Shown: piece by piece, positions 1 through 59,077 of the stretch
Position numbering within the stretch: position 1 is the stretch's first letter
Layout of the letters: every line of letters starts with the position of its first letter
Assembly (NCBI GenBank): GCA_038060295.1
Contig: JBBTHR010000028.1
Coordinates: 234-64,233, forward strand
Reading direction: 5' to 3'
Length of the DNA: 64,000 bases
From: Candidatus Eiseniibacteriota bacterium
Lineage (GTDB): Bacteria > Eisenbacteria > RBG-16-71-46 > SZUA-252
The notes under the pieces: generated by a model
The model's input: the letters and a program-made list of their open reading frames with translations, nothing else
What the model was told of the DNA's origin: nothing
Databases searched by the model: none
Position numbers and translations under genes: made by a program

Positions 1-1362
1 GAGAGCCCCGAAGCCGTGGCCTACAAGCACGACATCCATCGCGCGCGTGGCGTCACCTGCGCCGACTGCCACGGGGGAGATCCGCACCAGGACGACCAGG
101 ACGCGGCCATGAACAAGGCGAAGGGGTTCATCGGCGTGCCGAAGAAGCAGCGGATCCCGGTGCTCTGCGGCTCCTGCCACGGCGGACAGGACTCCGGATT
201 CGCCGCCCGGTACAAGCTCAAGAACGTGCTCGACGACTATCACGGGAGCGCGCACGAGCGTTCGCTCGACGCGAACGCGAAGGGCGCGCAGTGCGTCTCC
301 TGCCACGGAGTTCACAATATCGTGGCGGTGACCGACTCCCGTTCTCCGGTCCACGCGGGCCGCGTGGTCGACACGTGCGCCAGGTGCCACGGCGACGCCC
401 TCTACATGCGCGATTTCAATCCATCGCTCCCCGTGGATCAGAAGGAGAAGTACCTGACGAGCGTCCATGGGCAGCGGAACGCCAAGGGCGACTGGAAGGT
501 GGCTACCTGCGTCAGCTGCCACTCGAATCACGCGATTCGCCAGGTGAAGGACCCGCGGTCGCCGGTCTATCCGACCCTGATTCCGGCCACCTGCGCCCAC
601 TGCCACGCGAACCAGAAGTACATGGCGGGGTACGACATACCGACGACGCAATTCAAGGACTACAAGGAGAGCGTCCACGGTCTCGCGCTCCTCCAGAAGT
701 CCGATCTGAACGCGCCGGCCTGCAACTCCTGCCACGGGAACCACGGGGCCGCTCCGCCGGGCGTCGCCTCGGTGACCGCGGTCTGCGGCCAGTGCCACCA
801 GTTGAACGAGGAACTCTATCAGCGCTCGGCGCACCAGCCTGTCTTCGCGGAGAAGAAACTCCCGGCGTGCGTGGTCTGCCACGGCAACCACAAGGTGAAG
901 CCGACGTCCGACGCCATGATCGCCTTCGACGAGCCGGCGCCCTGCGCCGCCTGCCACAAGGACGACGCCGGCGACAAGGCGGCACCCGGCATGCGGCGAA
1001 TCCGCGGACTCATCGACAGTCTCACGGTCGGCCAGAAGGAGGCCGAGGCCGTGCTGGCGCGCGCCGAGAATCTGGGCATGGACATCGCCGACGCGCGGTA
1101 CTCGTTGAAGGATGCCCGGCAGGCGCGCGTTCAGTCGCGTGTCGCCATTCATAGTTTCGTGGAGAAGGAGTTCGAGGAGGCGGCCCGGCCCGGCATTCAG
1201 GTCGTGGCCAAAGCGCACGCCGCTGGCGAGGCGGCGATTCACGAGCATCGGTTTCGCCGGCAGGGGCTGGTGGTGTCGACGCTCATCGTCACGTTCGCGG
1301 CTCTCTTGCTGTGGTTGAAGATTCGTCAAATCGAAAGGAGGCAACGAGGTGAAGACGGCTAG
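1..1362 (+). CDS. multiheme c-type cytochrome, membrane anchored (5' end probably cut by window edge)
   Basis: Frame is open from nt 1. Ten CxxCH motifs (CADCH, CGSCH, CVSCH, CARCH, CVSCH, CAHCH, CNSCH, CGQCH, CVVCH, CAACH). C-terminal hydrophobic helix LVVSTLIVTFAALLLWL. TAG stop at 1360-1362. Confidence 0.85.
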   Translation, partial: ESPEAVAYKHDIHRARGVTCADCHGGDPHQDDQDAAMNKAKGFIGVPKKQRIPVLCGSCHGGQDSGFAARYKLKNVLDDYHGSAHERSLDANAKGAQCVSCHGVHNIVAVTDSRSPVHAGRVVDTCARCHGDALYMRDFNPSLPVDQKEKYLTSVHGQRNAKGDWKVATCVSCHSNHAIRQVKDPRSPVYPTLIPATCAHCHANQKYMAGYDIPTTQFKDYKESVHGLALLQKSDLNAPACNSCHGNHGAAPPGVASVTAVCGQCHQLNEELYQRSAHQPVFAEKKLPACVVCHGNHKVKPTSDAMIAFDEPAPCAACHKDDAGDKAAPGMRRIRGLIDSLTVGQKEAEAVLARAENLGMDIADARYSLKDARQARVQSRVAIHSFVEKEFEEAARPGIQVVAKAHAAGEAAIHEHRFRRQGLVVSTLIVTFAALLLWLKIRQIERRQRGEDG

Positions 1363-1945
1363 GCTGAGTTGGATGCTCGTCGCGGCCCTCATCGCCTGGA
1401 GCGGGATCGCCCAGGCGCAGACGGCGACCGCCCCGATGTACGTCGGGGTGAAGCGCTGCAAGACGTGCCACAATCTGGAAAAGGCCGGTGGCCAGTTCGC
1501 CAAATGGACCGAGTCGAAGCACGCGAAGGCGTTCGCGAGCCTCGCGAGCGATTCGGCTCTGGCGATCGCGAAGGAGAAGGGGATCGCCGATCCGCAGAAG
1601 GCCGAAGAGTGCCTCTCGTGCCACGTGACCGGGCATGGCGAGGCGGCCGACAAGTTCAAGGAATCGTTCGTGGCCGCCGATGGCGTCGGCTGCGAGTCGT
1701 GCCATGGAGCGGGCAGTAACTACCTCAAGAAGAAGACAATGGAGGGGCTCCGCGACAAGAGCCTCAAATACGAGGATCACGGGCTCATGATGCCGACCAA
1801 GAAGACCTGCGAGAAGTGCCACAACGAGAAGGCCACCGGCGGGAAGTTCGTCGACTGGGCGGCCGACAGCGCGAAGATCTCCCACGCCATTCCGGCCGGA
1901 TTCAAGCGCGGCGCGGAGGCGGCCGCGGCGCCCGCGGGCGAGTAG
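1349..1945 (+). CDS. tetraheme cytochrome c (cytochrome c554-like), secreted
   Basis: GGAGG 8 nt upstream of GTG 1349. Signal peptide MKTARLSWMLVAALIAWSGIAQAQ. Four CxxCH motifs (CKTCH, CLSCH, CESCH, CEKCH). Overlaps the upstream cytochrome by 14 nt. Confidence 0.85.
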   Translation: MKTARLSWMLVAALIAWSGIAQAQTATAPMYVGVKRCKTCHNLEKAGGQFAKWTESKHAKAFASLASDSALAIAKEKGIADPQKAEECLSCHVTGHGEAADKFKESFVAADGVGCESCHGAGSNYLKKKTMEGLRDKSLKYEDHGLMMPTKKTCEKCHNEKATGGKFVDWAADSAKISHAIPAGFKRGAEAAAAPAGE

Positions 1946-13484: not shown

Positions 13485-13727
13485 TTGTTCCGATTCCTGA
13501 GCCGCCTCTTCGTCGCGCTGGCCGCGCTCTTCGCGCTCCGCCTCGTCTTCGCCGCCATTCGGCGTGCGAATCGGGCCAACGAGCCGCGCCGGCCCGCGCC
13601 GCCCCATTCCGATGCGCGGCAACGGGTCGTCAAGCCGTCACGCACGCCCCGCATCGATCCCGCTCTCGCCGAGGACGTCCCCTTCGTCGAAGTCGGGCAC
13701 GAGCGCGAGAGAGTCCGGCAAGACTGA
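13485..13727 (+). CDS. small hypothetical membrane protein
   Basis: GGGGGAG upstream of TTG 13485. N-terminal hydrophobic helix FLSRLFVALAALFALRLVFAAI. Ends 3 nt before rarA. Confidence 0.4.
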   Translation: MFRFLSRLFVALAALFALRLVFAAIRRANRANEPRRPAPPHSDARQRVVKPSRTPRIDPALAEDVPFVEVGHERERVRQD

Positions 13728-55048: not shown

Positions 55049-55696
55049 GTGAACGGCGGCGTCCCCGCGTTCCGGGAGATCGATCCCGCCGCCATCGCGC
55101 CGGCCGAGGCGTACGCGCTATTGACAGGGTGCGTGGTGCCGAGGCCGATCGCGTTCGTCTCCTCGCTGTCTAAGGCCGGGGTGGCGAACCTCGCCCCGTT
55201 TTCCTTCTTCAATGCGGGCGGCGCGCATCCTCCCTCCGTGGTCTTCATGCCGGTGACGACCGGGACCGGCCGCGACAAGGACACGCTCCACAACGTTCGG
55301 GAGACGGGGGAGTTCGTCATCCACATCGTTCCCTGGTCGCTGCGGGAGCGGATGAACCTGGCCTCGGCCGACTATCCGCCCGACGCAGACGAGTTCCTGG
55401 AAGCGGGGTTCACCAAGGCGCCCAGCGTGAAGGTGAAGCCCTTTCGCGCGGCCGAATGCCCGGTGGCGCTGGAGTGCAAGCTATTCCGGATCGTGGAGCA
55501 CGGCGAGGGGCCCTACCACGCGAACTACGTGATCGGTGAGGTAGTCTATTTCCATCTCGCGGAGGCGGTGCTCACGAACGGCCGCGTCGACGCCGCGAAG
55601 CTGGACGTGATCGCGCGGCTCGGGGGACCGAACTACACGCGGGTTACGAAGGAGTCGATCTTCGGGATGCCGCGGTCCGTCCTGCCGCCGAAGTGA
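55049..55696 (+). CDS. flavin reductase-family protein
   Basis: GTG 55049. VVPRPIAFVSSLSKAGVANLAPFSFFN is typical of the flavin reductase-like FMN-binding domain. Confidence 0.85.
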   Translation: MNGGVPAFREIDPAAIAPAEAYALLTGCVVPRPIAFVSSLSKAGVANLAPFSFFNAGGAHPPSVVFMPVTTGTGRDKDTLHNVRETGEFVIHIVPWSLRERMNLASADYPPDADEFLEAGFTKAPSVKVKPFRAAECPVALECKLFRIVEHGEGPYHANYVIGEVVYFHLAEAVLTNGRVDAAKLDVIARLGGPNYTRVTKESIFGMPRSVLPPK

Positions 55697-56043
55697 ACCC
55701 CGCGGAATTACGCCGCCTGGCCGCCATCCGGAAGGGACTCTGCCCGCAATGCCGGACGGGACGCGTCTTCGCGGGCGCGCTGACGATGAACGAGCGCTGC
55801 CCGTCGTGCGGGATCGTCTTCAGCCGCGAGCCGGGCTATTTCTCGGGCGCCATGTACTTCAGCTACACCCTGGCCGTCGGCGTCATCCTCGTGCTCTTCC
55901 TCGCGCTGGCGCTGGTCTTGCGCGGATGGCCGATGATGCGCCTTCTCCTCGTGGCGGGACTCCTCTTCGTGCCGTTCATTCCGGCGGTGTTCCGCTATTC
56001 GAGGATTCTTTGGATCCACTTCGACCGGCACTTCGAACCGTAG
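55693..56043 (+). CDS. DUF983 membrane protein
   Basis: CPQCRTGRVF...CPSCG zinc-ribbon-like N-terminus followed by two TM helices. 4-nt overlap with the upstream gene. Confidence 0.75.
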   Translation: MNPAELRRLAAIRKGLCPQCRTGRVFAGALTMNERCPSCGIVFSREPGYFSGAMYFSYTLAVGVILVLFLALALVLRGWPMMRLLLVAGLLFVPFIPAVFRYSRILWIHFDRHFEP

Positions 56044-56054
56044 TGGCGCGCGAG

Positions 56055-56154
56055 GGAGACTGGTCACGCTGGCTGGCGCCGGCCGCGGGCTTCAAACCCG
56101 CCGGGCAACCCCCGCAAGGGTTGTCGTTCGGTTCGATTCCGAAGCCAGTCTCCA
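56055..56154 (+). tRNA. selC: tRNA-Sec (selC-like), anticodon UCA
   Basis: Acceptor GGAGACUG(G) pairs with (C)CAGUCUCC. Anticodon arm GCGGG-CUUCAAA-CCCGC has a loop identical to E. coli selC. 8-bp extra arm GGCAACCC/GGGUUGUC. T-arm UUCGG-UUCGAUU-CCGAA. About 100 nt, no encoded CCA. The D-arm is ambiguous by hand folding. Confidence 0.78.
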
Positions 56155-56185: not shown

Positions 56186-56881
56186 ATGAAGCGTCTACAA
56201 GATCTTCTGGCCAAGAACGCCGCCTGGGCCGAGGCCGTCCGTCGCGACGATCCGGCGTTCTTCGAGCGGCTCTCGAACCAGCAGAATCCGGAATACCTCT
56301 GGATCGGTTGCTCCGACAGCCGCGTCCCGGCGAATCAGATCGTCGGGCTTCTCCCGGGGGAGATGTTCGTTCATCGAAACATCGCGAACGTCGTGGTCCA
56401 CACCGATCTCAATTGCCTCTCGGTGATCCAGTTCGCGGTCGATCTCCTCCGCGTGCGGCGCATCATCGTCTGCGGCCATTACGGCTGCTCCGGCGTCATG
56501 GCTGCGCTTCGGCGGCAGACCGTGGGTCTGAGCGACAACTGGCTCCGCCACGTCGAGGACGTCCACGAGAAGCACGAGGTGCTCATCCAGGCGCTGCCCG
56601 ACGAGGCGTCGCGCCACGCACGGCTCTGCGAATTGAACGTCATCGAGCAGGTGGTGAACGTCTGCCAGACCACCGTTCTGCGGGAGGCCTGGGCGCGCGG
56701 CCAGGAGGTCTCGGTGCACGGATGGATCTACGGCGTGAGCGACGGGCTGGTGCGCGATCTCGGCATCGACATCGAGGGGGAGCGCGAGATCGCGGTGCAA
56801 TACCGGGAGGCCCTGGCTCCGCCGTGCGCCCCCACTCCCCAGAGGGTTCTGGACACGGCACGGCCACGCCCGCTATCATAA
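56186..56881 (+). CDS. can: beta-class carbonic anhydrase
   Basis: Close resemblance to E. coli Can: FFERLSNQQNPEYLWIGCSDSRVPANQI, VHRNIANVVVHTDLNCLSV, ICGHYGCSG. Confidence 0.93.
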   Translation: MKRLQDLLAKNAAWAEAVRRDDPAFFERLSNQQNPEYLWIGCSDSRVPANQIVGLLPGEMFVHRNIANVVVHTDLNCLSVIQFAVDLLRVRRIIVCGHYGCSGVMAALRRQTVGLSDNWLRHVEDVHEKHEVLIQALPDEASRHARLCELNVIEQVVNVCQTTVLREAWARGQEVSVHGWIYGVSDGLVRDLGIDIEGEREIAVQYREALAPPCAPTPQRVLDTARPRPLS

Positions 56882-56885
56882 ATAG

Positions 56886-57203
56886 ATGATCGTGCGCTTT
56901 TTCCTGGCCCTCCTTCTCCTTGCGTCGTTCGTGTCTGTGGCCGTGCCCTCGTCGGCGGTGGCTTCCGATCCCTGCGGCGCCTGTCCGGCGGCCGGAGGGG
57001 CCGAGGAGGACTGCGCCGAGAATTGCCCGCTCTGCGTCTGCGGCCCCCATCGAGCGCCGATGACGGAACCGCCCGCGATTCCGAATCCGCTGCTTTCGCC
57101 CGTGGTCGAGTTCCTGGCGGGCGCCGATCTAGCCGCCCTCGCGCCCGCTCCTCACGACATCCTGCACGTCCCCAGGTTCGCCGCCGTTTCTCCGCAGTCC
57201 TAA
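56886..57203 (+). CDS. small secreted cysteine-rich protein
   Basis: Signal peptide MIVRFFLALLLLASFVSVAVPSSAVA, then DPCGACP...DCAENCPLCVCGPH (7 Cys in 27 aa). Sits directly upstream of the metal efflux genes. Confidence 0.5.
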   Translation: MIVRFFLALLLLASFVSVAVPSSAVASDPCGACPAAGGAEEDCAENCPLCVCGPHRAPMTEPPAIPNPLLSPVVEFLAGADLAALAPAPHDILHVPRFAAVSPQS

Positions 57204-57317
57204 GTACCCGACTCCGTACCTGATTCCACGTACCGGCTCACGCCACTCGGCGTGACTCGGAGGCGTTCGCCGTCGCGTGTCGCCGGCCCCGCCATCGACG
57301 CGAAGGAGGATCTACGA

Positions 57318-57683
57318 ATGAACCGCATTCTCACGTTTTCGTTCGCCGCCGCCATCCTGACGGCCCTTTTCGCCGCGGGATGCGGCGGTCGCGACCAGGG
57401 CCCGGCCTCGTCCGCGAAGGGTCAAGCGGCCGTGGCCACGCCGCCGGAGGCCGCTGCTGGCGGGTCGCAAGCCGAGGGGACCGTCCAGGGCTCCTACGCC
57501 GATTGGTGCGATGAACACGCTGTTCCCGAGACGGCATGCACGCGCTGCGACGCTTCTCTAGTCGCCGCGTTCAAGGCGACGGGGGACTGGTGCGAGGAGC
57601 ATGGAGTCCCGAAGTCGCAGTGCGTCGCCTGCGACCCCCAGTTGAAGATCACGCGCCCGCCCAAGCCGGACGGAGTCGAATGA
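57318..57683 (+). CDS. lipoprotein made of two C-x-E-H-x6-C-x2-C modules (putative periplasmic metal-binding protein)
   Basis: GAAGGAGGA upstream of ATG 57318. Lipobox FAAGC. WCDEHAVPETACTRC and WCEEHGVPKSQCVAC. Stop overlaps the adaptor ATG (ATGA). Confidence 0.65.
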   Translation: MNRILTFSFAAAILTALFAAGCGGRDQGPASSAKGQAAVATPPEAAAGGSQAEGTVQGSYADWCDEHAVPETACTRCDASLVAAFKATGDWCEEHGVPKSQCVACDPQLKITRPPKPDGVE

Positions 57684-59077
57684 GCGCCGGGCGATCGTAT
57701 TGGGCCGGAGGGGTGGTCGCTCTCGTGGCCTGCCTCGCGTTCGCCGCGGGATGCGGGAACGGGTCGGCGCCCGCGAAGTCGGAGCAGCGCGCCGCGGCGG
57801 CGCCGGCCTCGGGCGCCGCGGCGGCCACCGATCTATGCTCCGAGCACGGCGTACTCCGGGTCGTCTGCACCAAGTGCAATCCGAAACTCGCGGTGATCTT
57901 CCGGGCGAAAGGGGACTACTGCGAGGAGCACGGCCTCCCGCTCTCGCTCTGCCCGGTTCACCACCCGGAGCGCGGGGGACGGCCCCTCGTGGACGTCACC
58001 CGGAAGGAGGCGCCCGCCGACCGGACGAGGCTTCGCTTCAAGGATCGTGAGACGGCGCGCCAGGCGGGATTCGAAACCGTCGAGGCGACGCCGGACCTGG
58101 CCGGCGCGTCGATTCCGGCGACGGCGACCCTGGTCGTCGACGCGTCGCACCGGGCCCTCGTCGCGGCCGGCGCTCCGGGCGCCGTGCGCGAGATCTTCGT
58201 CGAGGAAGGGGCGCGCGTGGCCGCGGGCTCCGCGCTCGCGCGGATGGAAAGCGCGGCGCTCGCCGACGCGCGGTCGCGCCTCGATGCGGCGAAAGCGCGC
58301 CTCCAGAACGCGGCGGCGATACGGGACCGGGAGCGCTCGCTCTTCGAGAAGGGGATGACGCCCCGCCGCGAAGTGGACGCGGCCGAACAGGAGTACGGAG
58401 CCGCGAACGCGGAGGTCGAGGCCGCAGCGGGAACGCTGAAGGCGCTCGGCGCCGGTCCCGACGCGGGGGGGACGCTGATCGTTCGGGCACCCATCGCGGG
58501 CGTCGTCACGCGCCGTGCCGCCGTCGTGGGCCGTTACATGGAAGCGGAGGAGATGATGTTCGAACTCGTCGATCCGTCGCGGCTCTGGGCGGAAATCGAG
58601 ATCGGCGAGCGGCACGCGGCCCGGGTCGTGACGGGGGATGCCGTGTCGATCCATCTCGGGCCGGAGGAATCCGATCGCGTGACCGGGACGCTGGTCTACG
58701 TGGCGCCGGTGGTGGACGAGGCGAGCCGGGTCGTCCGGGCGCGAGCGCGCCTCGACCGGGCCGATCCCCGCGCGCGCGTGAACGCCGTCCACCGGGCTAC
58801 GATTCGCTCCCGGGCTGCGGCCGGCGCGGTCGTCGTTCCCCGCGAAGCGGTGCAGGAGGTGAGCGGGGCGAGTGTCGCGTTCGTCCGTCTCGCCGACGAT
58901 CTCTACGAATCGCGCCGCGTCCACGTGGAGCAGGCCGAGGGGGGGACGGTTTCGGTCCGGCGCGGACTCGCACGCGGCGAGCGGGTGGTCACGATCGGGA
59001 GCTTCCTCCTCCTGACCGAGAGCGACAAGAGCGCGATCGGCACCGGGTGCTGCGAGATCGAGGCCCCGTCGAAATGA
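57680..59077 (+). CDS. efflux RND periplasmic adaptor, CzcB/CusB-like, with N-terminal Cys/His module
   Basis: Lipobox FAAGC. N-terminal LCSEHGVLRVVCTKC and YCEEHGLPLSLCPVHH. MFP core VRAPIAGVVTRR, coiled-coil region. Confidence 0.88.
   Translation: MSAGRSYWAGGVVALVACLAFAAGCGNGSAPAKSEQRAAAAPASGAAAATDLCSEHGVLRVVCTKCNPKLAVIFRAKGDYCEEHGLPLSLCPVHHPERGGRPLVDVTRKEAPADRTRLRFKDRETARQAGFETVEATPDLAGASIPATATLVVDASHRALVAAGAPGAVREIFVEEGARVAAGSALARMESAALADARSRLDAAKARLQNAAAIRDRERSLFEKGMTPRREVDAAEQEYGAANAEVEAAAGTLKALGAGPDAGGTLIVRAPIAGVVTRRAAVVGRYMEAEEMMFELVDPSRLWAEIEIGERHAARVVTGDAVSIHLGPEESDRVTGTLVYVAPVVDEASRVVRARARLDRADPRARVNAVHRATIRSRAAAGAVVVPREAVQEVSGASVAFVRLADDLYESRRVHVEQAEGGTVSVRRGLARGERVVTIGSFLLLTESDKSAIGTGCCEIEAPSK

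Follow-up and report, generated by a model that had tools for sequence, protein, structure and literature searches.

tRNAs that resemble tRNA-Sec

Two features define tRNA-Sec, the product of selC, i.e., the discriminator base G73 and an acceptor/T branch of 13 bp (8/5). G73 is present in every credible tRNA-Sec among 3,213, and is deemed essential because it contacts both SerRS and SelA (PMC5330540). Genuine bacterial tRNA-Sec with a branch of 12 bp (7/5) also exist, including a type, 7a, which has an extra connector nucleotide (Santesmasses et al. 2017, PMC5330540). One natural tRNA-Sec with A73 has been reported as an exception; none with U73 is reported in the literature examined, and the Secmarker supplements contain nothing on U73 candidates.

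The Rfam model of tRNA-Sec also recovers two classes of look-alikes, the allo-tRNAs and the selC* tRNA-Cys (Mukai et al. 2017, PMC5389517). Allo-tRNAs combine a D-arm like that of tRNA-Sec and a long variable arm with an 8/4 or 9/3 branch, G73 or U73 and highly diverse anticodons, and nonsense suppressors are among them; they occur in Acidobacteria, soil metagenomes and other groups, often near toxin-antitoxin or transposon genes (PMC5389517). In the selC* tRNA-Cys the discriminator is U73 and the anticodon GCA or UCA, and every host genome encodes the full Sec machinery. Each of the selC* phyla has its own arrangement, and in some delta-proteobacteria selB* and cysS* lie downstream of the tRNA gene (PMC5389517). 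The name tRNA-ReC was given to selC* by Vargas-Rodriguez et al. (2018), as cited in PMC13582414. According to the rule used in the latter, a 2026 paper, a tRNA of at least 80 nt with anticodon UCA or GCA is a tRNA-ReC if the discriminator is U, and a SelC if it is G or A.

A tRNA gene with anticodon UCA between DUF983 and carbonic anhydrase

The window, i.e., the whole 64-kb stretch of DNA that was analysed, encodes on its plus strand a DUF983 protein (55693–56043; Pfam PF06170) and a beta-class carbonic anhydrase (56186–56881; Pfam PF00484, E value 2e-51), and the closest homologues of the latter are named Candidatus Eisenbacteria. The 142-nt spacer between the DUF983 stop at 56043 and the carbonic anhydrase start at 56186 houses a tRNA gene with the anticodon UCA. 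All of the selC-like elements which a sequence-only reading had listed for this spacer are found there, and two of the checks that it had named, ARAGORN and the Rfam model, recognize the gene. ARAGORN calls a tRNA-SeC with anticodon tca, spanning 56057–56153, and the Rfam tRNA-Sec model RF01852 gives 62.4 bits (E value 2.6e-10) against a gathering threshold of 47. E. coli selC, which was used as a control, scores about 20 bits more (83.8 bits, without mismatches), and the alignment of the window tRNA to the model contains 3–4 mismatched or non-standard pairs; across the family of homologues, scores are 56–69 bits. The fold predicted for the 100-nt stretch is a cloverleaf of five arms with a minimum free energy of −56.5 kcal/mol (z = −4.4; 0 of 200 shuffles as good). 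Based on the ARAGORN and RF01852 calls, the folding z-score and the covariation in 21 homologues, the tRNA is a real feature, far beyond chance.

The mature tRNA occupies 56058–56154 and is 97 nt long from G1 to an encoded CCA, as defined by the conservation profile and by ARAGORN spans. Its acceptor stem pairs GACUGGU (56058–56064) with GCCAGUC (56144–56150), and is followed by a 3-nt connector, CAC (56065–56067), one nucleotide above the usual number and of the 7a type. The D-arm (56068–56083) has a 6-bp stem (56068–73/56078–83) and the 4-nt loop UGGC. The anticodon arm (56085–56101) has a 5-bp stem (56085–89/56097–101) and the 7-nt loop CUUCAAA (56090–96), with the anticodon at 56092–56094; it was read directly from the sequence as well as from the ARAGORN and RF01852 results and, as had been noted earlier, the loop is the same as in E. 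coli selC. A long variable arm (56104–56125) consists of an 8-bp stem (56104–11/56118–25) and a 6-nt loop, and the T-arm (56127–56143) of a 5-bp stem, UUCGG/CCGAA, enclosing the loop UUCGAUU; both arms had been described correctly beforehand. The discriminator is U73 (56151), and the 3' CCA is encoded at 56152–56154. As the tRNA-Glu of the window has no encoded CCA, an encoded CCA is not a general habit of this genome. Acceptor and T-stem add up to a branch of 12 bp (7/5), with one extra linker base.

Homologues, covariation and the ends of the mature tRNA

The final alignment includes 21 distinct homologous sequences. A pattern scan of species-representative genomes revealed near-identical genes in a Candidatus Eisenbacteria MAG, where the order DUF983-tRNA-carbonic anhydrase is the same, and in an Acidobacteriota MAG; the scan also yielded a distinct delta-proteobacterial tRNA class, discussed below. 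A metagenome scan in which acceptor and D-arm were left unconstrained provided 18 further loci, and three more lineages were obtained, with the tRNA sequence unconstrained, from contigs carrying close homologues of the carbonic anhydrase. The hosts are Eisenbacteria-like and Acidobacteriota bacteria as well as other uncultured bacteria from soil, groundwater and sediment. MAGs with the gene include JANOOP01 (Eisenbacteria), DATIQI01 (Acidobacteriota) and GCA_035760425.1, contig DASTSZ010000252. The anticodon is UCA in 21/21 sequences; this sampling was partly constrained, 18 having been found with a pattern that fixes UCA and three lineages (L029, L039, L041) by synteny alone.

Every helix is supported by the alignment. 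The acceptor stem (58–64/144–150, in the last digits of the coordinates) is paired in 96.6% of the cells, with a U-A to C-G change at 61:147 and U.G, U-A or C-G at 64:144. The D-stem is paired in 99.2% and shows 3 double-sided changes. For this arm the earlier reading had hesitated between alternatives; the one with a 6-bp stem and a 4-nt loop is correct, and does not compete with the anticodon stem as had been feared. The variable arm is paired in 91.7%, with compensatory double changes at 6 of the 8 pairs. The T-arm is invariant, which is partly fixed by the search pattern, and it is identical also in the relatives sampled by synteny, where that pattern was not involved. The connector varies (CAC, CUC, AUC, UGA, CAA, GUC). 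The core of the anticodon loop (U33, UCA, A37), the T-loop and U73 (21/21) are invariant across the diverged copies. The acceptor pairs G1:C72, A2:U71 (i.e., no G2:C71) and C3:G70 are nearly invariant across genomes of 45–69% GC. Together with the freely drifting variable arm, this near-invariance suggests that the acceptor is recognized in a sequence-specific manner by a protein partner.

The ends of the tRNA differ from those proposed originally. In the window copy, GGAGACUGG at 56055–56063 is complementary to CCAGUCUCC at 56145–56153, from which the sequence-only reading had derived a gene of about 100 nt (56055–56154) with an acceptor longer than 7 bp. The complementarity and the tRNA gene stand, while the conserved helix is limited to 58–64/144–150. 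The outer pairs 57:151, 56:152 and 55:153 are formed in 16/21, 15/21 and 4/21 homologues, respectively, and there is no covariation between the two sides in any of the three. The information per column is 1.7–2.0 bits from G56058 through A56154 and low outside these limits, with 0.5 bits at 56057, near zero at 56055, and no more than 0.5 from 56155 on. Downstream of U56151 there is CCA in 17/21 and UCA in 4/21, so that C56153 and A56154 are invariant, and then unconserved sequence. In the control with E. coli selC the ARAGORN span ran from G1 to A76, including G73-CCA, and in the homologue family it usually runs from the equivalent of G56058 to that of A56154. The conservation profile, the failure of the outer pairs and the ARAGORN control thus place the mature tRNA at 56058–56154. 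The apparent 9-bp acceptor results from a fortuitous complementarity, in the window copy, of the leader sequence G55-G56-A57 to U73-C74-C75, and the acceptor has 7 bp once the homologues fix the ends. Positions 56144–56145, thought earlier to sit awkwardly as spacers, are ordinary acceptor bases that pair with U56064 and G56063. The gene, its ends, fold, U73, UCA anticodon and encoded CCA are conserved under structural selection.

Other readings of the acceptor were rejected. A stem of 10 bp (the minimum free energy fold) or 9 bp requires 55:153, paired in 4/21, as well as 56:152 and 57:151, which fail in 6 and 5 of the 21, and is also contradicted by the invariant 3' bases. An 8/5 reading with 56057 as +1 would turn C-C-A into positions 73–75 and leave the invariant C56153 and A56154 unexplained; if forced, it would give C73, which is likewise not G. 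A reading with A73, as in the 10-bp helix, falls on the same grounds.

The leader bases 56056 and 56057 are themselves mildly conserved (G in 15/21 and A in 13/21, respectively). They are able to pair with C74 and U73, which might influence RNase P processing; alternatively, the conservation may reflect no more than the relatedness of the copies.

Comparison with tRNA-Sec

The window tRNA has the body of a tRNA-Sec, as the sequence-only reading had recognized, with the UCA anticodon, the 6-bp D-stem with 4-nt loop and the long variable arm; the identity claimed for it fails at G73 and at the 13-bp branch. With E. coli selC it shares the CUUCAAA anticodon loop, the design of the D- and variable arms and the T-loop, but E. 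coli selC has an 8-bp acceptor, a 13-bp branch and G73, in place of 7 bp, 12 bp and U73. A would-be eighth acceptor pair, 57:151, fails in 5/21 and would use the invariant discriminator U. The closest counterpart among tRNA-Sec is the 7/5 type 7a, likewise with a 7-bp acceptor, a 5-bp T-stem, an extra base between acceptor and D-arm, a 6-bp D-stem with 4-nt loop, a long variable arm, UCA and an encoded CCA. However, the 7/5 tRNA-Sec all have G73 and are usually encoded in selABC operons (PMC5330540), whereas the window tRNA has U73 and no sel neighbours. As the two defining features of tRNA-Sec were looked for and are missing, the label selC is not justified. No literature linking Eisenbacteria with selenocysteine was found.

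Comparison with tRNA-ReC and allo-tRNA

Given its length of 97 nt, its U73 and its UCA anticodon, the window tRNA is tRNA-ReC-like under the rule of PMC13582414. It resembles tRNA-ReC/selC* in the tRNA-Sec-like body that passes RF01852, in U73, UCA and the long variable arm, and in the encoded CCA. It differs in the branch, which in selC* is 8/4 (in delta-proteobacteria with the bulge A51a) and here is 7/5 with a 3-nt connector and no bulge. The missing 8-bp acceptor is not disqualifying, since the arrangement is specific to each phylum (PMC5389517). Further differences are that selC* mostly have GCA, whereas UCA alone is found in the window-type family, and that selC* hosts are anaerobic Firmicutes, Thermodesulfobacteria, Nitrospirae and delta-proteobacteria, whereas those of the window type are Eisenbacteria- and Acidobacteriota-like and apparently aerobic. 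In addition, the selC* loci of some delta-proteobacteria have selB* and cysS* downstream, and the window tRNA has neither.

The similarity to allo-tRNA consists of the 12-bp branch, the tRNA-Sec-like D-arm, the long variable arm, a U73 that is allowed in that class, and the occurrence in Acidobacteria and soil metagenomes. In contrast to the 8/4 or 9/3 branch, diverse anticodons and toxin-antitoxin or transposon neighbours of allo-tRNAs, the window tRNA has a 7/5 branch, UCA fixed in a sample that was partly constrained, and housekeeping neighbours. In the window copy 65:143 is a C.A mismatch while U127-A143 can pair; because C65 cannot pair with A143, the branch is split 7/5, unlike the 8/4 by which allo-tRNAs are defined. 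U65, present in 9/21 members, would allow a 65:143 pair and an 8/4 alternative.

The window-type family was set apart from the published look-alikes by means of their descriptions and of the delta-proteobacterial loci that were retrieved. The latter (L008, L005, L006 and L010, all from MAGs) encode UCA tRNAs of a distinct class, in which the acceptor has 8 bp and U73 is followed by CCA. In L008 (4097–6141) the tRNA gene lies between a CCG/4Fe-4S (HdrD-like) gene upstream and, directly downstream, the gene for a 637-aa SelB-type elongation factor. These loci match the published selC*-selB* arrangement and, as they reproduce the selC* picture, the window-type family is a different sub-class. The 7/5 fold plus linker, the host phyla and the unlinked context are undescribed in the look-alike literature compared, the 2018 tRNA-ReC survey aside. 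Judged by sequence and fold, the window tRNA would best be filed with the known tRNA-Sec look-alikes.

Genomic context and distribution

The absence of adjacent selA, selB and selD, which had been pointed out before, extends to the entire window, where a Pfam search revealed no SelA, SelB, SelD or CysRS domains, and where no canonical selC is present. No sel or cysS genes occur within about 10 kb in the syntenic relatives, or beside the family members of other lineages, in which the neighbours are transketolase, SecA, ABC-transporter, TonB-related or ordinary tRNA genes. Toxin-antitoxin or transposon genes do not adjoin the window tRNA or the family members examined. Viral contigs and a plasmid collection gave no matches to the window-type tRNA, and an origin from phage or plasmid was dismissed on this basis. 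The tRNA lies on the coding strand within a tight gene array. Because the spacer contains no consensus for a sigma-70 promoter or an intrinsic terminator, co-transcription with the flanking genes is plausible. The gene repertoire of the window, which includes cytochrome oxidase subunit III, the homogentisate pathway, RND efflux pumps and multihaem cytochromes, is ordinary and apparently aerobic.

Among syntenic relatives, the tRNA is present in L009, L029–31 and L039–42, whose carbonic anhydrases are 84–92% identical to that of the window, with compensatory changes in the variable arm. It is absent from L043 (81% identity), from L032–34 and L044 (77%), in which DUF983 and carbonic anhydrase genes overlap or are 16 nt apart, and from L035–38 (71%), in which they are 5 nt apart. 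Based on this patchy presence at the DUF983-carbonic anhydrase locus, the tRNA gene is an accessory insertion in an Eisenbacteria-like lineage, since kept under selection.

The place of the tRNA in L043 (885–1421) is taken by a 178-aa ORF without a Pfam family. As this ORF lies in the same junction, the latter appears to be a recurrent insertion point.

UGA as a stop codon

In the window (68% GC), the stop codons of 45 predicted genes are TAG (23), TGA (17) and TAA (5). In the other GC-rich loci with the window-type tRNA, TGA is the commonest stop (28 of 41 genes, with TAG in 13). With TGA ending 17/45 and 28/41 genes, respectively, a reassignment of UGA was rejected. Since UGA is still a normal stop, both wholesale reassignment and efficient general suppression are unlikely.

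The majority of TAG in the window is unusual for high-GC bacteria. The idea that a preference for TAG marks UGA suppression throughout the family was also considered, and the other loci do not show it. An in-frame TGA at 13725, a candidate for a selenoprotein, is just where a small ORF ends that precedes an MgsA gene.

Proposed function and alternatives

The UCA tRNA most likely belongs to a known class of look-alikes and is not a standard selC gene. Tentatively, and with a confidence that falls somewhat short of even, we favour a tRNA of the tRNA-ReC/selC* type, Sec-shaped but with cysteine identity, which inserts Cys at UGA; its amino-acid identity, delivery factor and targets are those which we infer from the features above. 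The body would be derived from a 7/5-type tRNA-Sec that has acquired a cysteine-type discriminator, U73. The gene would be co-transcribed with its neighbours, and the tRNA excised by RNase P and 3' processing. U73 is the main determinant for CysRS, and C35-A36 is common to UCA and the cysteine anticodon. Charging with cysteine by CysRS might accordingly employ U73, the anticodon bases C35-A36 and G1:C72. Cys would be placed at particular UGA codons while UGA stops in general would not be read, and the predominance of TGA in the GC-rich loci that bear the family argues against indiscriminate suppression. If the genome has Sec machinery, delivery could be by SelB at SECIS-marked UGA codons, by analogy to tRNA-ReC. 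Against a tRNA-ReC stand the lack of sel and cysS genes in the window and near the homologues, given that the published selC* hosts are all Sec-equipped, as well as the 12-bp branch without bulge, the aerobic-looking hosts, and the occurrence of UCA alone instead of mostly GCA.

Automatic annotation of the gene as tRNA-Sec would invite the inference that an Eisenbacteria-like groundwater organism uses selenocysteine. This inference is unsafe because the discriminator and the branch length point to the class of look-alikes with Cys at UGA, and it is advisable to check position 73 of matches to tRNA-Sec covariance models ahead of any claims about a selenoproteome. If confirmed, the tRNA-ReC-type reading would add apparently aerobic phyla to the known hosts of such recoding, and 7/5 plus one extra linker base to its known folds, and would provide a natural switch from G73 to U73 on a tRNA-Sec scaffold, useful for genetic-code engineering.

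The main alternative, unlikely but conceivable, is an opal suppressor similar to allo-tRNA, which depends on EF-Tu, carries Ser or another amino acid, and provides UGA read-through at a low level or conditionally, without Sec machinery. The earlier reading had itself named a better fit to a suppressor-like tRNA as evidence against a tRNA-Sec, and U73, the 12-bp branch and the existence of the look-alike classes go part of the way in this direction. A 12-bp acceptor/T branch is that of EF-Tu substrates, the gene is accessory, patchy and without sel genes nearby, and one homologue is from an Acidobacteriota MAG. Allo-tRNAs have the same D- and variable arms and may have U73, they are known from Acidobacteria and from soil, and some act as nonsense suppressors (PMC5389517); moreover, in the 9/21 members with U65 pairing to A143 could produce the 8/4 branch. 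However, the C65.A143 mismatch makes the window copy 7/5 rather than 8/4 or 9/3, UCA is the fixed anticodon where allo-tRNAs are highly diverse, and neither toxin-antitoxin nor transposon genes adjoin the gene. The pair G2:C71 favours SerRS in E. coli identity studies, and the window tRNA has neither this pair nor G73. An efficient general suppressor would also be costly to hosts in which TGA is a frequent stop.

We consider it improbable that the gene is a genuine selC with an atypical U73, whose product would be charged with serine by SerRS before conversion by SelA and delivery by SelB. The RF01852 score above threshold, the SeC call of ARAGORN, the UCA anticodon, the 6-bp D-stem with its tetraloop and the long variable arm would all agree with it; genuine tRNA-Sec of the 7/5 plus extra-linker type are known (PMC5330540), a natural A73 tRNA-Sec has been reported, and selC is often unlinked to selAB. 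On the other hand, an invariant U73 is at odds with the G73 of all credible tRNA-Sec among the 3,213 (PMC5330540), the deficit of about 20 bits and the 3–4 mismatched model pairs set the gene apart from the E. coli control, and there are no Sec genes in the 64 kb, while close relatives lack the gene at the locus.

A separate new clade, to which we also assign little probability, would consist of tRNA-Sec-derived opal tRNA-Cys(UCA) with U73 and a 12-bp branch that are compatible with EF-Tu and provide programmed or conditional UGA-to-Cys read-through independently of Sec. It would be found in aerobic phyla of soil and groundwater, Eisenbacteria and Acidobacteriota among them, and would be unlike both Sec insertion and the SelB-dependent tRNA-ReC. 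Should the hosts be without any Sec machinery, this would be a new Sec-independent system of UGA-to-Cys recoding. Finally, it is very improbable that the gene has no part in ribosomal decoding, as a decaying pseudogene or as a tRNA-like aminoacyl carrier or regulator, because the patchy presence, the unusual set of identity elements and a related sequence comprising only the 3' half in L022 and L027, without a detectable 5' half, are countered by strong purifying selection with compensatory changes on every helix, and by an anticodon loop core, T-loop, U73 and CCA kept across 21 diverged copies.

Further observations

The sequence in L022 (1856–1906, minus strand) and L027 (6841–6891, plus strand) includes the anticodon arm of the window-type family, a shorter variable arm, the T-arm and the 3' end UCUAGUU-U-CCA. 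Neither a matching 5' acceptor strand nor a D-arm was found for it, and both ARAGORN and Rfam pass it over, so that a decayed copy or a different architecture is conceivable.

In the syntenic loci L029, L032, L035, L039, L041 and L044, the carbonic anhydrase gene is followed by a gene for a peptidase S51 (cyanophycinase-like) and by two cyanophycin-synthetase-like genes. In the window (56881–59077) the genes immediately after it are a 105-aa ORF and a CzcB/CzcA-type RND pump; in L039 these are found downstream of the cyanophycin cluster. The lineage of the window seems to have lost this cluster. At the beginning of the window (1–1945) there are two genes for multihaem c-type cytochromes (cytochrome c7/c3, c554 and MtrC/MtrF-like domains), and the identical Hainich contig L001 encodes a similar multihaem cytochrome of 681 aa downstream.
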